A stretch of DNA of 50,305 nucleotides from a virus. Its lineage: Duplodnaviria; Caudoviricetes. The stretch is taken from positions 1-50,305 of the IMG/VR virus record IMGVR_UViG_3300033388_003879; one strand, written 5' to 3'. Each line of letters begins with the position of its first letter. The stretch's first letter is position 1. Of this stretch, positions 6,738-35,759 are shown piece after piece. The notes beneath the pieces were generated by a model, which was not told the origin of the DNA, searched no databases, and worked only from the letters and a program-made list of their open reading frames with translations. Made by a program: the position numbers and the translations under genes.

Positions 6738-7772
6738 ATGGCTTATACAACATTCCAGAAAGAATTTTGGTCAGATGATTATGTTCTAGAACTCACACCG
6801 ATTCAAAAACTCATTTATGCATATATAATTACAAATGAAAAAACAACCCAATGCGGGATATATGAACTTCCTCTAAAAAAGGCTACTACTGAATTATCAA
6901 TAAGTGCTGAAGAGTTTTTAATCCATCTTAAAAAATTTAACGATGATAAAAAGATATCATACAGCTTAGAGACTCAAGAAATATGTGTAATCAACTGGCT
7001 GAAACACAATGAAAATAGTTCATGGAAAACTATGGAGCGAGTAAAGAAAGAATTAACTAAAATAAAGAACCCTAATCTTGTTGTTCTTTTATATGATCCA
7101 AGAAAACCACTATTTGACGGCACAAGAAAAAAAAGGCAAGGCAAGGATTATATAGAAGAGCAATATATAATAAATAATCCATGGAATGAGTTATTTCAGG
7201 GATTATCAGATGAAATATTGATGGAAATAAGAAAACCTTTCCTAAAGTATGCCCCATTGATGCCCCTTCTATGCCCCATTGATGCCCCTTCTAAGGGCTA
7301 TTTACCATATACAAATACATTACATAACATAACAAATTCAGAATCATATACAAATACAAAAGCAGAAACAGATACAGTGGAACAAAGCCCCACCGAGAAA
7401 GAATTTTCTCCTCCCCCTCCGTACATCCAAGATCCTAAAGAAAAGTTTAAAAGTTTTCTAAACTTCTGGAATGAAACTATTCCTCAAGAAGCGATACCGA
7501 TAGATTTGAACATCAGCTTAGAGACAGCGCAATTGAACTTTATATCTACTACAGATTTTGAGCACTACAAAAAATGTGTAACACACTACAGCAAAGCATA
7601 TGATTTTAACACCACAAGGATCGGAGGATTTAAAAGTTCTCTTACTCCTAATTTTATTATGAACTGGTATAGTGAATCAGCTATAGAAAATTGTAGGCAG
7701 AGATCCGAAATAGGGAAATCTAAAAAAACGAATACTGCAGTAACATTCGAAAACGACGATAGAACATTTTAA
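6738..7772 (+). CDS. phage replication initiator (replisome organiser-type N-terminus)
   Basis: FWSDDYVLELTPIQKLIYAYIITNEKTTQCGIYEL; internal iterons. Confidence 0.75.
   Translation: MAYTTFQKEFWSDDYVLELTPIQKLIYAYIITNEKTTQCGIYELPLKKATTELSISAEEFLIHLKKFNDDKKISYSLETQEICVINWLKHNENSSWKTMERVKKELTKIKNPNLVVLLYDPRKPLFDGTRKKRQGKDYIEEQYIINNPWNELFQGLSDEILMEIRKPFLKYAPLMPLLCPIDAPSKGYLPYTNTLHNITNSESYTNTKAETDTVEQSPTEKEFSPPPPYIQDPKEKFKSFLNFWNETIPQEAIPIDLNISLETAQLNFISTTDFEHYKKCVTHYSKAYDFNTTRIGGFKSSLTPNFIMNWYSESAIENCRQRSEIGKSKKTNTAVTFENDDRTF
7249..7292 (+). repeat. iteron array, probable replication origin
   Basis: 2 x ATGCCCCATTGATGCCCCTTCT, i.e. 4 x ATGCCCCWT at 11-bp period, followed by an A/C-rich tract. 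Confidence 0.75.
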
Positions 7773-8871: not shown

Positions 8872-9039
8872 TTGCTATTATCTGGAATATCTGTTATTAT
8901 GTTGTTATCAGTTGGTACCTGATAACAACCAGATATAATCCAATATAGATTATGAAGCCTGTTAAGGCATTGAGAGAATATTTAGTTTTATCTGGGACTA
9001 TTTTATTCGTACCAACTCGATGTTTTAACAGGCTTTTTT
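8872..9039 (+). ncRNA. a/b antisense-attenuator RNA element 1 with its promoter
   Basis: TTGCTA-17-TATTAT; loop TTGGTAC complements GTACCAA; CCAGATA complements TATCTGG; 20-bp terminator stem plus U-tract. Confidence 0.7.
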
Positions 9040-9051
9040 ATTGGAGTTTTT

Positions 9052-9621
9052 ATGAATAGATCTGATTTAGTGTCAAAATATAACTTTTTGTACAAGACAA
9101 TTATTCCATACGATAAAAGATATCATGATACTTGTTTTTACTGCGGAGAAGTTCAAGATGTTATTGATCATTATCCAGCTCTAGCTACTACCGAAAAGAT
9201 GTATGGTCTGTATTATGGAGATTATTTGCTTATACCGTCCTGTAGATCTTGTAATTCATTTTTATCAGACTCTTATCAAAACAACATTCATGACAGAATA
9301 AAATACGTAAAGAAATTGATTTTCAAGAAAAATAATAGAATAATAATCAATGGCTTTAAATGGTTTCCAGAAGAAATTGAGGAATTAGAAAAAGGCCATT
9401 TAATGGATATCGTTTTGAAAATGAAATATAAATCCACAGTCATGATAGATAGGCTGACATACAAGCCTTATGATTTTTATATCAAAAAAGAAAAAGAAAA
9501 GATTCTATATGCAATATCAGAAGACGTAAATAAGGATTATTACTATCTCATAGAATCGCTAGAAGAAGAGAAAGAAGATTTACAAAAATTGTTTAGAGAA
9601 AATTTATATTTGAAAGTTTAA
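9052..9621 (+). CDS. HNH-type endonuclease
   Basis: CFYCG...IDHYP...CRSCN. Confidence 0.75.
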   Translation: MNRSDLVSKYNFLYKTIIPYDKRYHDTCFYCGEVQDVIDHYPALATTEKMYGLYYGDYLLIPSCRSCNSFLSDSYQNNIHDRIKYVKKLIFKKNNRIIINGFKWFPEEIEELEKGHLMDIVLKMKYKSTVMIDRLTYKPYDFYIKKEKEKILYAISEDVNKDYYYLIESLEEEKEDLQKLFRENLYLKV

Positions 9622-9670
9622 CATTCCAAACTTCACGCTAAAACATTTATATTATTTGTATATTATCTTC

Positions 9671-9699
9671 TTGACATACTTTAATAGATGTATTAGATT
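9671..9699 (+). promoter_or_regulatory. early-type promoter with ACATACT motif
   Basis: TTGACA-17-TAGATT, then AAGAGGTGA RBS. Confidence 0.75.
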
Positions 9700-9729
9700 A
9701 GAGATAGATTGAAATTAAGAGGTGATGAG

Positions 9730-9888
9730 ATGACAAAAACTTATAATAATTTAAATGATATTGAAAAGAACATAATTAGAGAATATAGAAGCTGGTGTAA
9801 ATCTGATTGTGATTTAAACTATAAAATAGCCATGGCTACACAATGGAGAGAAAGAGCAGTTTCCGAAAATATCCAGCATTTATTATAA
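9730..9888 (+). CDS. 52-aa hypothetical protein
   Basis: Not in ORF track; GAGGTG RBS directly after promoter. Confidence 0.65.
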   Translation: MTKTYNNLNDIEKNIIREYRSWCKSDCDLNYKIAMATQWRERAVSENIQHLL

Positions 9889-11055: not shown

Positions 11056-11105
11056 TCTTGAAATAATTTTACTTCAGGATTATTATTAAAGTGTGGAGAC
11101 GAACA

Positions 11106-11750
11106 GTGCCTAAGAAAAATGAACCAGATAAATTAAACCCAAAGCAGAAAGCTTTCTGCCATGCTCTTATAGAACTTGACTGGAATCAAACACAGGCAGC
11201 TATTAAAGCCGGATATGCTAAAAAATCAGCTCATGTGACTGCTTCAAGATTGCTAAAAGATGATAAGGTGATCAAATATCTCGATGAGTGCGTTGATAAG
11301 AGCCTAGGAGCGATGAAGTCACAAATCAGGCATAAAGTCTTATCTGAGTTAATACCGATAGCTACACAGAACAGCACTGAGATTGTGAATGTACTTACTA
11401 AGACATACGAGAAGCCTATTTTAAATAGTGAAGGTGAACCAACCGGAGAGACTGAAACTAAAGAATATCAAACAGTAGAAATAGCTGATACTACAAACCT
11501 TACACCTCAACAGCAAAAGACAATTTCCAGTATTAAACAGGATTCAAAGGGCTGTATTGAAATAAAGTTCCATGATAAAAAATCTGCTCTTGAATTGTTG
11601 GGGAAGCATGGTGGCTTGTGGAATGATACAAATAAGGTTGAACTTTCTGGAAAGCTTGAAACTGAGAATACAAATATAAATGTAGATGTTTCTAATTTAA
11701 CTGAAAGTGAAGCAAAAGAATTATTCTTTCAGACTATTAATAAAGATTGA
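11106..11750 (+). CDS. terS: terminase small subunit
   Basis: KQKAFC...NQTQAAIKAGY...ASRLL; EIKFHDKKSALELLGKH; GGAG RBS before GTG 11106. Confidence 0.9.
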   Translation: MPKKNEPDKLNPKQKAFCHALIELDWNQTQAAIKAGYAKKSAHVTASRLLKDDKVIKYLDECVDKSLGAMKSQIRHKVLSELIPIATQNSTEIVNVLTKTYEKPILNSEGEPTGETETKEYQTVEIADTTNLTPQQQKTISSIKQDSKGCIEIKFHDKKSALELLGKHGGLWNDTNKVELSGKLETENTNINVDVSNLTESEAKELFFQTINKD

Positions 11751-11924
11751 AATTATTTGTAATAAATGTTATCCTTAATTAAGGTCGTTGGCCTACTTCT
11801 TTGACGGGGAGTTTTATACATAAGTTCAGGGTTAAGAAGGCTGCTTCAGCTTCCTGCCCTATATAGTTTGCCTGAACTGACTATCTACGGGACGTCACAG
11901 GAAACTGAAGGAGTCTTTTTTTTT
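11747..11924 (+). ncRNA. a/b antisense-attenuator RNA element 2 with its promoter
   Basis: TTGAAA-17-TATCCT; TGACG/CGTCA and AGTTCAGG/CCTGAACT pairings; terminator 3' arm contains the RBS. Confidence 0.7.
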
Positions 11925-12617
11925 ATGCATAAAATAGATATTGGAGATGTATTTGGTGATCTTGTTGTTTTGGATGTTTTTTCAAATACTAAAAAATGCG
12001 GGAATAAATATAGAGCTGCTAAATGTCGGTGCGTAGTGTGTGGAGCTACTGGCCATACTGACGTATGGAAACTTGTTAAGAATAAAGTAAAATCGTGTAA
12101 AGGATACAAAAGAAGAGTAGAAGATTTTACTAATTATTCTGTAGCATATACTCATAACCTGGAAAAAGTTTTTGTGTCCAAAGAAGATAAAGATATTCTT
12201 GAAGTTTCTTCTCTACATACTGATGAAGCTGGATATTTTATTACAAAACTAAATAGCAAGAACAAGAGAATCCATTTAATTATTTCTGAAAGGATTTACG
12301 GTGAGTTTGAGATAATCGATCATAAAGATCGAGATAAAAGCAATTGCCGTAGAAATAACCTTAGAAGATCTACAAGAAAGCAAAATAATAGGAACATGCC
12401 ACTAAAAAAAATGAAAACCAAAACAAGTAAATATAAGGGAGTTTATTATTCCAAAGAAACAATAAACAAGTGGCAATCCTCAATAACAGTGGATGGTGAA
12501 AAAATATTATTAGGTAGGTATGATTCAGAAATGCAAGCGGCAATAGTTTACGATGAATATGCTTTGATTTATCATAAAGAATTTGCATGCACTAATACTA
12601 TGCTGGGTCTTTTATGA
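11925..12617 (+). CDS. HNH homing endonuclease with AP2 DNA-binding domain
   Basis: IDHKDRDKSNCRRNNLR; SKYKGVY...LLGRYDSEMQAAIVYD; likely start ATG 11925. Confidence 0.9.
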   Translation: MHKIDIGDVFGDLVVLDVFSNTKKCGNKYRAAKCRCVVCGATGHTDVWKLVKNKVKSCKGYKRRVEDFTNYSVAYTHNLEKVFVSKEDKDILEVSSLHTDEAGYFITKLNSKNKRIHLIISERIYGEFEIIDHKDRDKSNCRRNNLRRSTRKQNNRNMPLKKMKTKTSKYKGVYYSKETINKWQSSITVDGEKILLGRYDSEMQAAIVYDEYALIYHKEFACTNTMLGLL

Positions 12618-14025
12618 AAATCCCATGGACTGAAAGGGCAAAAATAATAACAGATCCAGAACAAATAAAAAAATATTACAACGCTTACCATATTCAATCA
12701 GTGGAGTCTGTTATAGATTTTATTGACCGATTCTGTATAACTGTTGATCCAAGAAAAACAGATAATAGAGAATTACCTTTTGAACTTTTTGAAAAACAAA
12801 TTTCCTATATTCGATGGCTATGGAAGCAATATACGGATAGAAATGATGGTGTTGTAGATAAGTGTCGTGGGATTGGTATGTCATGGATGAATGCTGCTTT
12901 CTCTACCTATCTTTTACTCTTTCAAAAGCAGGTTACTATCTCTATGTATACCTATAAGGCCGATGAATGTCACGAAAAGGATAATCTTGATACCCTTATT
13001 GAGACTCTCCTGGTCGTGGAGGCCGTAGCTCTATTTATTTCTTAGATGAGTGTGCATTTTATCCCAGAGCTGATTCAATAGAAGCCGCCGTTTCCCGTAA
13101 TGCCGATTGTAAAATATGGGGTAGTACTCACCACGGCACAAATACTTTATTTTACAGAAAATGCACTTCTGGGATAAATAGCGTTTTCACTTTCGACTGG
13201 TGGGAATTGGGGGAAATGTATACTCAAGAGTGGTATGATTCAGAAAAAGAAAAAGCAGAGGCAGAGGGAACCTTGCATATTTTTCAGCAGGAAGTAGAGC
13301 GAAATGCAGCTGCCTCCCTTGAATCTGTTTGCTGTCCTCCTGAATGGGTAGCATCTTCCAAGAGAAATGAAACTATTCTGAATGGGCTTAAAATAGCGGC
13401 TCTTGATCCAGCTAATGAAGGCGGTGACACTCATGGGTTTGTTGTAGTTGATGGAAATCAAATTATACATGCCGATGAATCAGGGGAAGGTGACCCAGGA
13501 GAAGCTACAGATAAATACTTTTGGCGTGCCGTCAAAATGGAATGTGACGAATTTCGTTATGATCCAATAGGGATTGGTGCCGCAGTTTCTTCACGGCTGA
13601 AGGAAATTTTAAAACATCTAGCTGCTGATGATCCAGGCAAGAAGATAAAAATAAGGCCATGGAATGCCGGTGCTGCTGTGATTAGGCCAAATGAAAAAGA
13701 TTATGCAGAGACTAAAAACGAAAAGTTTTTTAAGAATAGTAAATCTCAAGCGTGGTGGAAAGTCAGGCATGAATTTTTACAGACATATAGAGCCGGTAAT
13801 GGTAAAGAATATAAGCCTGATGAAATTATTTCAGTTGGTGAAATAACAAGGAAAATAGAAAAGTTATTCCTTGAACTATCACAACCTCAATATATTATGT
13901 CGGTAGATGGGAAATTATTGATTGACAAGAAACCGAAAGGAACAAAATCACCAAATATCGCAGATGCTTATATAATGTGTCGAGCTGAGGTTAAACAAGG
14001 CTTCCAACCATGGACTGTCATATAA
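12614..14025 (+). pseudogene. terL: terminase large subunit, split by apparent deletion and frameshift near 13002
   Basis: Walker-A-like DKCRGIGMSW in first frame; -1 frame from 13003 gives GRGGRSSIYFLDE (Walker B) and nuclease motifs ALDPA...SPNIADA. Confidence 0.85.
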
Positions 14026-14029
14026 TCTC

Positions 14030-14059
14030 TTGACATACTACGTAATATAGATATAATAT
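14030..14059 (+). promoter_or_regulatory. early-type promoter with ACATACT motif
   Basis: TTGACA-16-TATAAT; AGATTAAATTAAGAGGTG leader. Confidence 0.75.
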
Positions 14060-14088
14060 AGGTAAAGATTAAATTAAGAGGTGAGAAG

Positions 14089-14259
14089 ATGAAGAAAACA
14101 ATATTAACAATGGGGATTATCTACTTTGTAGTAGGCGTTGTAGATTTATATCTGGATTATGATAAATGGACTATCCTGTGGCTTTCTAGCGGAATATTTT
14201 TTACTTTGATCGGATTAGGTATTTGGGCTATAGGCGAAATAAGGAAGATATCAAAATGA
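14089..14259 (+). CDS. 56-aa two-TM membrane protein
   Basis: Not in ORF track; MKKTILTMGIIYFVVGVV...WLSSGIFFTLIGLGIWAI. Confidence 0.7.
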   Translation: MKKTILTMGIIYFVVGVVDLYLDYDKWTILWLSSGIFFTLIGLGIWAIGEIRKISK

Positions 14260-18345: not shown

Positions 18346-19365
18346 ATGCCTAGAAAACATGCACCGTTTATTATTTGTAAATTTGAAATTAAAGCGGTTG
18401 ACGATAAAACAGATCCAGACAATTTTATTATCGAAGGTTTAGCTTCTCCTTACGGGAATATCGATTCCTATAGAGATGTTGTTATGCCTGGATCATTTAC
18501 GACAGACATTATTTCAAAAGGTGCCGGTCGACCTATCTTATGGCAACACAACAGAAGCGAGCCAATTGGAAAGGGTGAAATGACAGATCAGACAGCCGGT
18601 CTTGCATGTCAGATAAGACTACCGAAAGCTGATACTTTTGTTAGTGGTAGGGTAATGCCTCAAGTAAAAATCGGTTCTGTTACAGGTTTGTCTATTGGAT
18701 ACCGGACGATTAAAGAAGAATGGGACGATGTAGCTAGAGTGAATAGACTTCTTGAACTTGAATTAAAAGAGGTATCACTGGTTACTTTCCCAGCCAACGA
18801 TAACGCTAGAATAACAGCAGCTAAAGAATATATAAAAAGTTTCGGAGAAAATCCTGATTCAGAAACATCTTTCAAAGAATATCCATTGGCCGATGATAAA
18901 ACAGATTTCAACGCTGTAGATTCTATGGTTTCCCTTAAAGAAACCTTAACACTCGAATCTCCAAATTATGAAAAATGTTTCCTCATTCAGAACGGTGAAA
19001 AATCACAGCTTCCATATGCTGATTTTGTTAAAGGTGATTTAAAAATTATTCCAGGTGCTATTTATAGTTCTGCTGCTCAGTTTATAGCCAGAAAATCAGA
19101 TGATATTGAAGCCAAAGAATTCATAAATAAAATATATGCTAAAATGGGTCAGGAAATTCCTTTCCAGGAAAATAATGTTTATGTAGACCATAAAACCTAT
19201 GAGGCATTGAAAAAACAGGATCTAACCGCTATTTTTAATAGCGATGTTATATTAAGTAATTCAGTAAAAAATCTTATTGTCAAAGAGCTTGGTTCTAATC
19301 AGGGTTCGGTTCAACCTACCGATAAAAGCGATTTACTGGATGAATTAAAAGAATTAAATAAATAG
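18346..19365 (+). CDS. HK97-family prohead protease with C-terminal extension
   Basis: ILWQH, GLSIGY, EVSLVTFPAN; own promoter TTGACA(18296)-17-TATGAT. Confidence 0.92.
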   Translation: MPRKHAPFIICKFEIKAVDDKTDPDNFIIEGLASPYGNIDSYRDVVMPGSFTTDIISKGAGRPILWQHNRSEPIGKGEMTDQTAGLACQIRLPKADTFVSGRVMPQVKIGSVTGLSIGYRTIKEEWDDVARVNRLLELELKEVSLVTFPANDNARITAAKEYIKSFGENPDSETSFKEYPLADDKTDFNAVDSMVSLKETLTLESPNYEKCFLIQNGEKSQLPYADFVKGDLKIIPGAIYSSAAQFIARKSDDIEAKEFINKIYAKMGQEIPFQENNVYVDHKTYEALKKQDLTAIFNSDVILSNSVKNLIVKELGSNQGSVQPTDKSDLLDELKELNK

Positions 19366-21814: not shown

Positions 21815-22510
21815 ATGTATTCAGTAAAGCCATTAATAACCAGAAAAACAGAGATAGTTCAAGATCCAATCTTAACCAAAGAAGAGGTTGGATTATGGCT
21901 CAATCTCCCCGCTGGAATTATCGCAAAAAATACTTTATTGATTGAATCCCTGGTTAAAACCGTCACTGATGTTGTTCAGAATTATACATGGTTAAGATTA
22001 CAGAGAACTACTTTTGAAGCAGAATTTTCACTCGATTATTGCTACTGGGGTTATTTTATATCCGGTAATTTAAAACTAATGCTTGAAAGATCCCCTATTA
22101 TCGCACTTTCAGATATAGAAAAAATAGAATACTTGAATGAAGACGGTGTTTATGTAGAATTTGACCGTGGAGCGATGACGACCGCCGGACTATATGAAAA
22201 CACCACCGAGAAACAGGAACAGCGCGGGTGGGCTTCTGTGTATACCCGAGAGGCTATTCCATTTGACAATACAAGATATAATGCCTACAAAATCCGTATA
22301 ACGTTCGTAGCAGGATTTACTATTGACGATGATCCGGTTACAGATATCCCGCCGGCTTTAAAAACTGCTATGTTGCAGATAATCGCGAGTTATTATACTA
22401 ATCGTGGTGATTGTGCGGAGCGTGGCTGTAATTTGAATGGGTTTCCAGTGCCGTGCGAAGCGAAAGGAATTATGGATCAGTATACACTTGCACGGACTGT
22501 TTTGTGTTAA
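21815..22510 (+). CDS. head-tail connector (gp6-like)
   Basis: IRITFVAGF...IPPALKTAMLQIIASYYTNRG. Confidence 0.85.
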   Translation: MYSVKPLITRKTEIVQDPILTKEEVGLWLNLPAGIIAKNTLLIESLVKTVTDVVQNYTWLRLQRTTFEAEFSLDYCYWGYFISGNLKLMLERSPIIALSDIEKIEYLNEDGVYVEFDRGAMTTAGLYENTTEKQEQRGWASVYTREAIPFDNTRYNAYKIRITFVAGFTIDDDPVTDIPPALKTAMLQIIASYYTNRGDCAERGCNLNGFPVPCEAKGIMDQYTLARTVLC

Positions 22511-23028
22511 ATTAATAAATTTCTTACTTTTTCAACTGTCTCAACAGCAACTATAGAAGTTGTTTCTTTTGAATCAAAAAGTGTAATCATGATCGGTTGC
22601 ATCTCTGGAATAGTTTCAATAAGTTGTTTTTCTGTATTACAACTATTCATAACATTCCATAACATTTCTTTTGCTTCATCTCTATTTTTTTCTAGAACTT
22701 TTTTACCTTTAGCAATTTTCATCAACTCTGTGTTTTTCTCACCAGAGAAGTACCAGTTTTTATGCTTAGGGTCTGGCACTCTATTTACCTTTACAGAGAA
22801 AACCTCTCCACTTCTATAAGATTGAGATTCACCGAAACCATAGTGTGCGTAAGTCGTGAATGATATAAATTTTTCACATGCTTTATATGGAACGCCAGAA
22901 AGCTCTTTCGATATCAATGATTCAACAAGAGAAGACGCTAATTGATTTAACGCTTCATCTTTATCATCAAACTTTCTCTTTAAAACTTCATTTACCAATC
23001 TCTCTTTCTTCGATTTGCTTAATTTCAT
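22507..23028 (-). CDS. hypothetical protein
   Basis: AAGAGAGG RBS; C-terminal TEKQLIETIPE. Confidence 0.7.
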   Translation of the reverse strand: MKLSKSKKERLVNEVLKRKFDDKDEALNQLASSLVESLISKELSGVPYKACEKFISFTTYAHYGFGESQSYRSGEVFSVKVNRVPDPKHKNWYFSGEKNTELMKIAKGKKVLEKNRDEAKEMLWNVMNSCNTEKQLIETIPEMQPIMITLFDSKETTSIVAVETVEKVRNLLI

Positions 23029-23716: not shown

Positions 23717-23828
23717 ATTATACAGGTATATTTAACCATGTCAATAAGATACTATAAAATAATAGATAATAAAAATAATCACTAATTTGTTTATATTCTC
23801 TTGACATACTATAAATACTGTATATAAT
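23717..23828. promoter_or_regulatory. divergent early-type promoters
   Basis: Minus: TTGACA(23744)-16-TATAAT. Plus: TTGACA(23801)-16-TATAAT with ACATACTAT. Confidence 0.75.
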
Positions 23829-23859
23829 TAGAGGTAGATTAGAGAGAAGAGGTGATGAG

Positions 23860-24021
23860 ATGAGCGAAAAAAGATTTGAACTTAGAGAAGAAATAACCAA
23901 ACATACCATTCAGTATTTTGATAATTTGGAAGAAGCTCAGGAAGAACAAAATCTTCTAAATAAAATAAATACAGAAGTTTACGATATAGAATGGAAGGAA
24001 ATTAGACTTCCTATGTTCTAA
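23860..24021 (+). CDS. 53-aa hypothetical protein
   Basis: Not in ORF track; GAGGTG RBS. Confidence 0.65.
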   Translation: MSEKRFELREEITKHTIQYFDNLEEAQEEQNLLNKINTEVYDIEWKEIRLPMF

Positions 24022-25950: not shown

Positions 25951-25980
25951 TAAAATTTTGGATGTGGATTATATTTAAAT

Positions 25981-26148
25981 AGTCCTAGTCGAGGCTAGGA
26001 CAGCACGGCTGGAGAGCTTAGACCGAAAGGTGGATACTTGAAAAATGGGTGATACGCTACCCTGAGTGCGAGATTGAAAAACCTATTTTTAGGTTAATCC
26101 GATTTGATCACGGATTATTTAAAGCTTCTCAGACGAGAGGCTTTTTTA
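25981..26148 (+). ncRNA. structured ncRNA of unknown class
   Basis: TTGATA(25947)-17-TATATT promoter, five hairpins, terminator, no ORF. Confidence 0.65.
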
Positions 26149-26177
26149 TTCTAATCATAAAATAATTAAATATTCTC

Positions 26178-26206
26178 TTGACATACCATGATATAAAGAT
26201 TAGATT
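26178..26206 (+). promoter_or_regulatory. early-type promoter with ACATACCAT
   Basis: TTGACA-17-TAGATT. Confidence 0.7.
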
Positions 26207-26223
26207 TAGGTAGATTAAAGAGC

Positions 26224-26385
26224 TTGATAATGTAGATTATCCATATTATATTTAACGTATCTGAACTAACCACTCAGGTGCATAGAACATGGAATTTTTT
26301 AAAAGCATTGAGCGCTTTTTATGTCAGATCTTCCATGTGTCTGGCTCCCTATGTGGTGTAGGGGAAGCGCTGAGTGCTTTTCTTA
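26224..26385 (+). ncRNA. a/b antisense-attenuator RNA element 3 (orphan) with its promoter
   Basis: TTGATA-17-TATATT; ACCAC/GTGGT and ACATGGAA/TTCCATGT pairings; long hairpin ending TTTTCTT. Confidence 0.65.
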
Positions 26386-26537
26386 TTGTTCAGCTCGTGT
26401 TTTGTAACGGTTTGACGTAATAGTAGTCTATCCACCGTAGTACAGGTAAAGGTGAGTAGGAGCACTGCAAGTAGAGATAAATGTATCTTGACAGGTTCGG
26501 TATAGGTGGGTTTTAAAAAAAAAAGAGAGGATAGAAT

Positions 26538-26762
26538 ATGAAAGGAGGGAGAGGTAACAAGAGAATGAGGAGAGTGTGCCGAAAGAAAAGGACATTCCAC
26601 TCTTTGCAAGATGCTTATGATTCATCTTTTGCCTTAAATAGAAGAGGCTTTATGTTGAAGCCTTATGCTTGTGGGAACCATTGGCATTTATGTAAAAGAT
26701 CAAAAGAAGAACGATTGATGATAATATTTGATAAAATCGAAAATGAAAGGAAGAATAGATGA
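26538..26762 (+). CDS. small basic protein with Y-x-C...HWHL motif
   Basis: AAGAGAGG RBS. Confidence 0.7.
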   Translation: MKGGRGNKRMRRVCRKKRTFHSLQDAYDSSFALNRRGFMLKPYACGNHWHLCKRSKEERLMIIFDKIENERKNR

Positions 26763-26995
26763 AAATATTTACAAAAAAGAATTTTATGAGATTTATGGGA
26801 ATAGCATTTATGTATATCCCAGTATGGTCGGCTGTTAAGTTGTATCAAATATATAGCGGTACTGTTTCCTTTTCTGGACTAGACATGATAATGTTGGTTG
26901 GGTACATAGGGGCAAGCTTTTTTATAAAGGCTGTAGATCTTATTATTACCGGAAATTCTGGCACATTGACAATTGAGTTAAACAAACGTAGTTAA
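26759..26995 (+). CDS. small membrane protein (2 TM)
   Basis: ATGA overlap, hydrophobic segments. Confidence 0.65.
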   Translation: MKIFTKKNFMRFMGIAFMYIPVWSAVKLYQIYSGTVSFSGLDMIMLVGYIGASFFIKAVDLIITGNSGTLTIELNKRS

Positions 26996-27000
26996 TATAG

Positions 27001-27028
27001 AGCTTCTCTTCGGAGAGGCTTTTTTTTT
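27001..27028 (+). terminator. intrinsic terminator
   Basis: AGCTTCTC-TTCG-GAGAGGCT plus T-run. Confidence 0.85.
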
Positions 27029-35318: not shown

Positions 35319-35759
35319 ATGATAATAGTTGATATTGACGGAACGATTGCAAAAGTAGGCGATAGATTGAAATATTTACAACAGTCTCCGAAAGACTGGG
35401 ATTCATTTTATGCTTCATCTTTTGACGATGAGCCAATAAAAGATATAATTGATTTAGTCGTTTGCTTATTCAATAAAGGGCATTCAATCGTCTTCTGTAC
35501 CGGTCGCCGTGAAAGTTGCAAATACGACACTATAGAATGGATTAAAAAGCATTTTCCTGTTCATTTTACCTATCATAAATTATTAATGAGACCGAACAAC
35601 GATTACAGGCATGATACAGAAACAAAAATAGAAGCCTGTTCCAATGCTGGAATAATGCTACAGGATATAAAAATGGTTTTAGAAGACAGGAATTCTATGG
35701 TTGAAAAATGGCGTTCGCTAGGAGTTCGATGTCTTCAAGTTGCCGATGGAGATTTTTAA
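35319..35759 (+). CDS. HAD-family phosphatase (polynucleotide kinase phosphatase domain-like)
   Basis: VDIDGT, CTGR, LLMRP..D.RHD...K, EDR. Confidence 0.9.
   Translation: MIIVDIDGTIAKVGDRLKYLQQSPKDWDSFYASSFDDEPIKDIIDLVVCLFNKGHSIVFCTGRRESCKYDTIEWIKKHFPVHFTYHKLLMRPNNDYRHDTETKIEACSNAGIMLQDIKMVLEDRNSMVEKWRSLGVRCLQVADGDF

Follow-up and report, generated by a model that had tools for sequence, protein, structure and literature searches.

The window analysed here is the entire IMG/VR record IMGVR_UViG_3300033388_003879 of a virus of the class Caudoviricetes (Duplodnaviria), which comprises 50,305 bases and has an estimated completeness of 93%, and the subject of this report is a pair of predicted leader RNA elements that it carries. 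One of them, element 2 (11747-11925; all features are on the + strand unless stated otherwise), follows the gene for the small terminase subunit, terS (11091-11750; Pfam Terminase_2 1.4e-28; phrog_51), whose stop codon overlaps the -35 hexamer of the promoter-like site of the element, and precedes a free-standing endonuclease gene of the HNH_3 (HNH-AP2) type (11925-12617; Pfam HNH_3 1.5e-10; phrog_99 2.9e-35). The stop of this HNH_3 gene in turn overlaps the start of terL (ATGA), and the portal, protease and capsid genes come after terL. A preliminary description of the locus had placed element 2 between terS and terL, which agrees with the Pfam Terminase_2 assignment for terS and with the start of terL at 12614. 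The other, element 1 (8872-9051), was located by searching the window for an inner helix shared by both elements and precedes an open reading frame (ORF) at 9052-9621.

Direct reading of the sequence shows that the features of element 2 given in the preliminary description are all present at their positions within 11747-11925. The promoter-like site (11747-11775) consists of TTGAAA (11747-11752), a 17-nucleotide (nt) spacer and TATCCT (11770-11775) after TGT, as in an extended -10; the hexamers alone carry no weight, since the window contains 69 promoter-like sites and shuffled sequences 65 +/- 9. RNAfold predicts a 5' hairpin (hp1, 11795-11812) with 6-7 pairs, G-U pairs among them, which corresponds to hp1 of element 1 in the alignment made with model R1, a covariance model of element 1 only; the hairpin loop holds segment a, TGACG (11802-11806). 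Segment b (AGTTCAGG, 11823-11830) lies in a single-stranded linker, is the exact complement of a segment b' further downstream and has no other exact copy on the + strand of the window. The two arms of a lower stem, 11837-11856 (extended by RNAfold to 11834) and 11898-11917, form 17 Watson-Crick pairs, one G-U pair and two mismatches over 20 positions, and enclose an interior of 41 nt (11857-11897). Within this interior are a CCC/GGG helix, a helix of TAGTT (11864-11868) and GACTA (11879-11883) that closes a loop with b' (CCTGAACT, 11871-11878, the 8-nt exact complement of 11823-11830), and an unpaired segment a', CGTCA (11893-11897), next to the 3' arm. As had been proposed, the ribosome-binding site of the nuclease gene lies within the 3' arm, where the Shine-Dalgarno-like AAGGAG (11908-11913) is paired in the minimum-energy fold, 11 nt before the HNH_3 ATG. 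A run of nine T (11916-11924) abuts the ATG at 11925, and the minimum-energy structure of element 2 predicted by RNAfold is the long hairpin, at -44 kcal/mol.

The paralogous element 1 has the same order of parts. Its promoter-like site reads TTGCTA, 17 nt, TGT-TATTAT, and is followed by an 11-pair hp1 (8901-8929) with segment a, TTGGTAC (8912-8918), in its loop, by segment b, CCAGATA (8929-8935), directly after hp1, and by a 21-pair stem including four G-U pairs (8954-8974 and 9016-9036) around an interior of, again, exactly 41 nt. Segment a is complementary to an unpaired a', GTACCAA (9009-9015), at the 3' end of the interior, and segment b to the apical b', TATCTGG (8989-8995). The 3' end shows T6, then GGAG (9043-9046) and then the ATG of ORF 9052-9621, and the element folds at -53.9 kcal/mol with a z score of -6.9 relative to shuffles. 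A second promoter match is found in element 1 at 8912-8939 (TTGGTA, 16 nt, TATAAT, 10 of 12 positions), from which a transcript would start just before the long hairpin; segment a coincides with its -35 and segment b abuts its -10, and element 2 has no counterpart to it.

Both elements thus combine a hairpin with a U-tract, as intrinsic terminators do: the stem of element 2 ends at 11917-11920 before T9 and that of element 1 at 9036 before T6ATT. The compact, G+C-rich form with a small loop is absent, the hairpins being 81-87 nt long with a structured interior of 41 nt, and a simple terminator scan of the window did not list them. Ordinary terminators in the same phage are short hairpins of 8-9 pairs (26117-26150 and 26995-27028), and a scan of the window for a long hairpin followed by a T-run yielded elements 1 and 2 as the only strong cases. 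They precede both HNH-like genes of the window and no other gene. No sigma-70-like promoter was detected on the + strand within 11837-11917 or 8954-9036, a negative that applies to this promoter type only, as the late-promoter type of the host may differ.

Judging by their sequences, the two elements are paralogues that have diverged through compensatory changes. They could not be aligned structurally with MAFFT, and single-sequence covariance models were used, the E-values of which are rough as they come from a short calibration. Model R1 finds element 2 (11795-11927) as its best non-self match on both strands of the window (19.7 bits, E 0.0076), and in its alignment the two elements are in register at hp1, along the 24-nt linker, and in both the lower stem and the inner helix. 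Reciprocally, the model made from element 2 only finds element 1 as its best non-self match (29.3 bits, E 0.0009), the next, unrelated match scoring 15.9 bits. When the two elements are aligned by the model, pairing extends to 94% of cells, and both partners have changed in 12 of 34 pairs, compared with 6.1 +/- 1.8 in shuffles (1 of 500 shuffles reaching 12) and with 0-4 when partners are slid. Along the lower stem, eight pairs are identical, three show a change on one side, seven are compensatory and two are mismatched in element 2, and the TAGTT/GACTA helix is unchanged. The score of a plain global alignment between the hairpins is 4, versus -12 +/- 4.3 in shuffles (P 0.0015), and 16 of 4528 other windows of the record score as high. 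Taken together, the reciprocal models, the alignment and the matching interior positions support the earlier proposal that an a/b architecture is common to both elements, and the TAGTT/GACTA helix and the interior of 41 nt are indeed shared, as it had also stated.

To place the cassette in context, relatives of the phage were found through terS, portal and terL; the terL-based searches yielded six viral loci, two distant genome loci and four metagenome loci. In L128 and in L130/L141, a terS-like gene of 150-153 residues directly overlaps the terL start, and in L003/L131 a gene for a C-5 cytosine methylase lies between terS and terL (3652-4838 in L003, the closest relative), a cargo gene in place of the HNH cassette, which makes the terS-terL junction a hot spot for such genes. 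The window and its relatives are similar up to the stop codon of terS and again from a point shortly before the start of terL, so that 11751-12613, comprising element 2 and the HNH_3 gene, is by sequence comparison an insertion peculiar to this record. Accordingly, the HNH_3 gene has the setting of a homing cassette, inserted between conserved genes and absent from relatives. The preliminary description had regarded the element as tied to its nuclease, and asked whether relatives lacking this HNH gene also lack the element. They do, as model R1 finds nothing in four of four related records, two of which are at least 95% complete, and this part of the claim holds. Against a strict tie speak a related record, G001, in which an HNH homologue (36% identity) follows a small ORF and has no such leader, the ribosome site of element 1, which unlike that of element 2 is not hidden, and a candidate third element in L141 that does not stand beside a nuclease gene. 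The HNH genes of two Enterocloster phages (approximately 31% identical) likewise show no similar leader upstream when inspected by eye.

This candidate, which is of borderline membership as judged by model scores, is the one further match of the two-sequence model R3 (L141, 18589-18715; 24.0 bits, E 0.022 in 141 kb), and model R2 alone scores it at 18.5 bits. Most of its score comes from a 20-23-pair stem with an interior of approximately 46 nt, followed by U7 and then AUG. The region has a z score of -4.45 and carries TGT-TATTAT upstream, the extended -10 TGTTAT being common to element 1 and the candidate (and to element 2). A 9-nt leader segment can pair with the apex of the interior hairpin in an accessible duplex of -10.4 kcal/mol, and in stepwise folding this upstream-interior helix (9-13 pairs) persists from 18652 to 18696 before the lower stem takes over. 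The TAGTT/GACTA helix is missing. The candidate is located after a divergent methylase gene and approximately 290 nt before a gene with a SLOG domain and the capsid genes; if it were a true member, the element would be a general transcription-control device of this phage group and not a nuclease accessory. The approximately 290 nt of noncoding sequence 3' of it (18711-19000) contain a repeated CTGCCAGGG/CTGGCAGGG motif. A match of model R2 in L132 was rejected as an ordinary short terminator.

The interiors of these hairpins are complementary to segments in the upstream part of the same leader. The nested matches comprise 7+7 nt in element 1 and 8+5 nt in element 2, each with P of approximately 0.004 when the interiors are shuffled; an 8-nt match with a nested match of at least 5 nt occurs at 0.6-1.2% of positions of the same geometry across the window. 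In both interiors, b' begins at position 15 and a' finishes at the last base. All four a/b sites are essentially unpaired within their own domains, with an opening cost of 0.2-0.6 kcal/mol, and between the domains the best accessible duplex of element 1 is a:a', at -7.2 kcal/mol, and that of element 2 is b:b', at -9.5 kcal/mol. The structures also appear to act as RNA of the + strand. The hairpin of element 1 has -33.7 kcal/mol on this strand versus -21.0 on the - strand, and that of element 2 -34.6 versus -30.0; this much higher stability is due to the G-U pairs and favours RNA of the + strand, and the arms of element 1 are, as DNA, 85% complementary.

The order in which these pairings may form was followed by stepwise minimum-energy folding of growing transcripts, a computation that leaves out pseudoknots and kinetics. 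For element 2, b:b' is present in transcripts ending at 11878-11890 and at 11898, but not at 11894, and for element 1 in those ending at 8995-9007; the transcripts with a:a' are those ending at 11898 (element 2) and at 9019-9027 (element 1). From 11910 in element 2 and from 9031 in element 1, these alternative pairings give way to the lower stem, and a fold constrained to retain them is 10-15 kcal/mol less stable than the complete terminator.

In our view, the elements are best explained as cis-acting leader RNAs, each a conditional intrinsic terminator (attenuator) heading a free-standing HNH cassette, and we put the probability of this reading at roughly 45%; most likely, such leaders keep mobile nucleases off unless the RNA refolds. 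A leader of approximately 140 nt would be made from the local extended -10 promoter or by read-through from terS, and its 5' domain, with segment a in the loop of hp1 and b in the linker, would pair with the apical b' and the 3' bulge a' of the emerging hairpin. As long as the a:a'/b:b' fold lasted, the 20-pair lower stem could not close. Once the 3' arm was transcribed, the more stable long hairpin would displace the early fold and, together with U9, terminate transcription just before the ATG, and in any read-through RNA of element 2 it would bury the AAGGAG ribosome site. The off state would hence combine termination with occlusion, and the on state would be the a:a'/b:b' fold with a free 3' arm. 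That termination occurs and that the alternative fold delays it are both inferred from the sequence and its predicted folds. The balance might be tipped by the speed or pausing of RNA polymerase, by a protein at the TAGTT/GACTA helix, which as the one conserved piece is a natural candidate for protein contact, or by an RNA acting in trans. Since the terL start overlaps the HNH_3 stop and the intervening stretch contains no more than weak promoter-like sites, terL would depend on some read-through for its expression, and the element may gate terL, as had been suggested.

Several observations weigh against the conditional terminator. The a:a' match of element 2 has only 5 nt and is weak alone, and b is placed differently in the 24-nt linkers of the two elements, such that one of the four pairings could be due to chance. 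Considering the 10-15 kcal/mol by which the terminator is favoured, the alternative fold may be fleeting. Furthermore, the alternative pairings involve no arm of the terminator stem, and their exclusivity with the stem is a geometric argument only: in element 2, merely 6 nt join b to the foot of the stem, and by this geometry b:b' should be incompatible with a closed stem. There are only two firm copies, both from one genome, and the covariation comes from these two sequences, aligned by a procedure that fits them to the structure. Only element 2 hides its ribosome site, the GGAG of element 1 lying beyond the T-run; the 151-nt stretch of element 2 has a z score of only -2.0, equalled by 8 of 200 shuffles; and intrinsic terminators are typically far shorter than this hairpin of approximately 83 nt. 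Finally, no input was found in the leaders, neither an ORF with a ribosome site nor a core resembling a ligand pocket.

A simpler account would treat each element as a fixed terminator or insulator that ends upstream transcription and shields the nuclease gene, the upstream complementarity having no function and read-through depending on leakiness or on a polymerase-modifying antiterminator. Such antitermination provides read-through at the lambda late promoter and tR', and late operons controlled in this way are laid out with a promoter that is followed by a short leader and then by a strong terminator. A hairpin with a U-run requires no further assumption, the computed stability points in the same direction, and there are T4-type parallels including, as described in PMC2988022, a stable hairpin just upstream of the seg43(25) ribosome site. 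What a fixed terminator leaves unexplained is why accessible nested complements recur with different sequences at the same interior positions of both elements, and again in candidate element 3, and why, in a phage whose ordinary terminators have 8-9 pairs, these structures span 83 nt with a fixed geometry (20-21 pairs, 41 nt, 20-21); we regard it as rather doubtful. A role in processing, as a ribonuclease (RNase) III site parting the terS message from the HNH-terL message, or in DNA, as a cruciform, nuclease or packaging site, would suit the position of element 2 next to the terminase genes, and RNase III needs about two helical turns of near-perfect duplex. For either role the T-run right after the stem, seen in both elements and in candidate element 3, would be needless, and the G-U pairs make the structure specific to one strand as RNA, with the DNA arms of element 1 only 85% complementary. 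Moreover, element 1 sits 2 kb from the terminase genes and relatives package DNA without the element, which leaves such roles very improbable.

The elements might also be small RNA genes, in which a stable RNA of approximately 95-140 nt would act in trans through its loops a' and b', as does c4 of phages P1 and P7, for example by pairing with segments a and b of transcripts that are nascent or have read through, which would force termination in a dose-sensing feedback. Plasmid pT181 provides a known attenuator that is driven by a countertranscript. Each element has its own extended -10 promoter-like site and terminator, the second and better promoter match of element 1 (10 of 12 positions) would start just before the long hairpin, and the loops are open; in c4, specificity is set by the a'/b' loop sequences (PMC5320573). 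The complements, however, are found further 5' within the leader itself, away from the ribosome site of the gene that follows, no exact second site of the C4 target type was found near either start codon, and neither element matches Rfam C4 at E up to 5. There is also no convincing second target in the window, as the near-match at 26412/26439 is expected approximately 0.2 times by chance (our own estimate), and we consider a small RNA gene improbable. The stretch in question (26412-26446) resembles a and b of element 2 over 6 nt and then 7 of 8 nt, 27 nt apart.

A more speculative extension, to which we give little credence on the sequence patterns available, would make the elements self-addressed programmable switches with private a/a' and b/b' addresses on a shared scaffold, where a terminated leader, its loops remaining open, would remove the anti-terminator fold in trans from nascent RNAs of the same kind alone and so make them terminate. 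Homing nucleases would then be controlled by the logic of c4 immunity in P1/P7, and each cassette could count its own copies, or sense a co-infecting genome with the same cassette, independently of the other cassette.

Homing nucleases must stay nearly silent to spare the phage that carries them, and to our knowledge almost nothing has been described on how this is achieved outside T4-like phages. By analogy, the nearest documented parallel to the conditional terminator proposed here is the control of homing endonuclease genes in those phages. According to PMC2988022, I-TevI, segB and mobE have terminators and hairpins that sequester the ribosome site, and seg43(25) has a very stable hairpin just upstream of its ribosome site. 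Elements 1 and 2 resemble this group (I-TevI, I-TevII, I-TevIII, segB, mobE of Aeh1 and seg43(25)) in that a stable hairpin immediately precedes an endonuclease gene, be it free-standing or located in an intron, in the ribosome site being buried (element 2) or the hairpin lying just upstream of it (element 1, as in seg43(25)), in intrinsic terminators that would limit read-through, and in a gene located between conserved essential genes; a buried Shine-Dalgarno sequence is thus seen in element 2 and not in element 1. The T4-type hairpins are short and bypassed by a late promoter inside the hairpin, whereas the present ones contain no sigma-70-like promoter, reach approximately 83 nt plus a T-run, and are preceded by a 5' domain with two segments complementary to the hairpin interior.

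Attenuators offer a second comparison. The infC leader of Bacillus subtilis is a terminator/antiterminator attenuator controlled by a protein. Like this leader and pT181, the present elements have a leader close to the promoter and a terminator immediately ahead of the start codon; an upstream segment could pre-empt the terminator by pairing with part of its region, and the same fold would affect the ribosome site. Here, in contrast, the pre-empting segments pair with hairpin loops and not with an arm, in two separate short pairings, and neither an antisense promoter, nor a leader peptide with a ribosome site, nor a ligand pocket is evident. As for c4 of P1/P7, the likeness lies in a structured phage RNA with two exposed segments a' and b', whose sequences vary between paralogues or relatives with complementarity to the partner sites kept, and which is co-transcribed with those sites (PMC5320573). 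That RNA, of approximately 77 nt, is excised by RNase P and acts on a gene further downstream by blocking its ribosome site (PMC5320573), whereas the partners in the present elements are upstream in the same leader, the RNA would end in a terminator, and no Rfam model matches.

Searches for known families were negative throughout. At the gathering score, Rfam 15 gave no match in the whole window, and at E up to 5 it gave only chance-level hits to mir-316, DdR11, SIB_RNA and Trp_leader, far below their gathering scores. A blastn search of the element against cultured phages returned nothing, and a degenerate core motif occurred in at least 119 stretches of viral contigs, none of which had the flanking stem and T-run among the matches listed. 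In exact searches, the apical 20-mer of element 2 had 0 matches and an 18-mer of element 1 had six, all in unrelated contexts. No description of such a leader at homing endonuclease genes was found by full-text search in the open-access library that was covered. Among other candidate classes, leader-peptide attenuation was rejected on our own reading of the sequence, in which the leaders are crossed by short ORFs, all of them lacking a ribosome site; a riboswitch was rejected as there is no conserved core beyond the 5-pair helix, which is missing even from candidate element 3; and a group I intron, a retron and IS200-type ends were dropped, with no split host gene, reverse transcriptase or transposase nearby.

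The element type is so far known from one genome plus one borderline relative. Two unrelated HNH genes of one uncultured phage share a leader RNA geometry that lies outside any RNA family, and their long-range pairings have changed in sequence with complementarity kept, which is a signature of a working RNA structure. If the elements are conditional terminators, they would constitute a compact, re-addressable expression switch and would explain how a nuclease cassette can reside between terS and terL without loss of terL expression, and a 20-pair stem, an interior of approximately 41 nt, a U-run and upstream complements of the loops would serve as a search image for other phages.

With regard to the genes of the cassettes, relatives of the HNH_3 protein are at most 45% identical and have an AP2 domain; the best one (45%) was found in a large protein collection and comes from a Logan assembly, and a search in viral contigs revealed no relative. 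The ORF at 9052-9621 probably encodes an HNH-like nuclease, as suggested by sequence motif and by the ESM Atlas. Its motif CxxCG..DHYP..CRSCN is invariant in its two 60% homologues (both from Logan assemblies), and among named clusters of the ESM Atlas the best is an HNH cluster, with a score of 0.94 and 170 shared features. It has no Pfam match, a PDB sequence search was empty, and its AlphaFold model (pLDDT 41.6) was too poor to use. Pfam scans of other ORFs of the window detected no further HNH among those scanned. The terL gene (12614-14025) is interrupted: compared with relatives, approximately 37 residues are absent and the frame shifts near 13003-13045, for which the cause would be a defect of the phage or else faulty assembly at a short repeat. 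Two ORFs cover the gene (12614-13045, and one in frame 1 from approximately 13021), and in comparison with three relatives the gap (12990-13050) sits just before a Walker B-like LDECAF motif.

Elsewhere in the window, a repeated promoter block (TCTCTTGACATAC..., a -10 plus a GAGGTG ribosome site) heads four rightward gene clusters (9664-9733, 14023-14092, 23794-23863 and 26170-26212), one copy lying directly 3' of the gene that follows element 1 and another directly 3' of terL. No tRNA or transfer-messenger RNA (tmRNA) genes were detected. An Nmad5 (nucleotide modification associated) gene (22507-23028, - strand) is located on the opposite strand inside the head module, a gene with a PNKP-type phosphatase domain (35319-35759) in the tail region, and ORF 6738-7772 contains three tandem 11-base units at 7248-7291 (TATGCCCCATT / GATGCCCCTTC). 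Approximately 570 nt of noncoding sequence at 25975-26150 and 26215-26540 possibly encode one or two RNAs of no Rfam family. The first 176 nt (25975-26150) have a z score of -4.25 and a short terminator at their end, after which a consensus promoter follows, and the 326 nt at 26215-26540 (z -2.5), which have no Rfam match, precede a small ORF.

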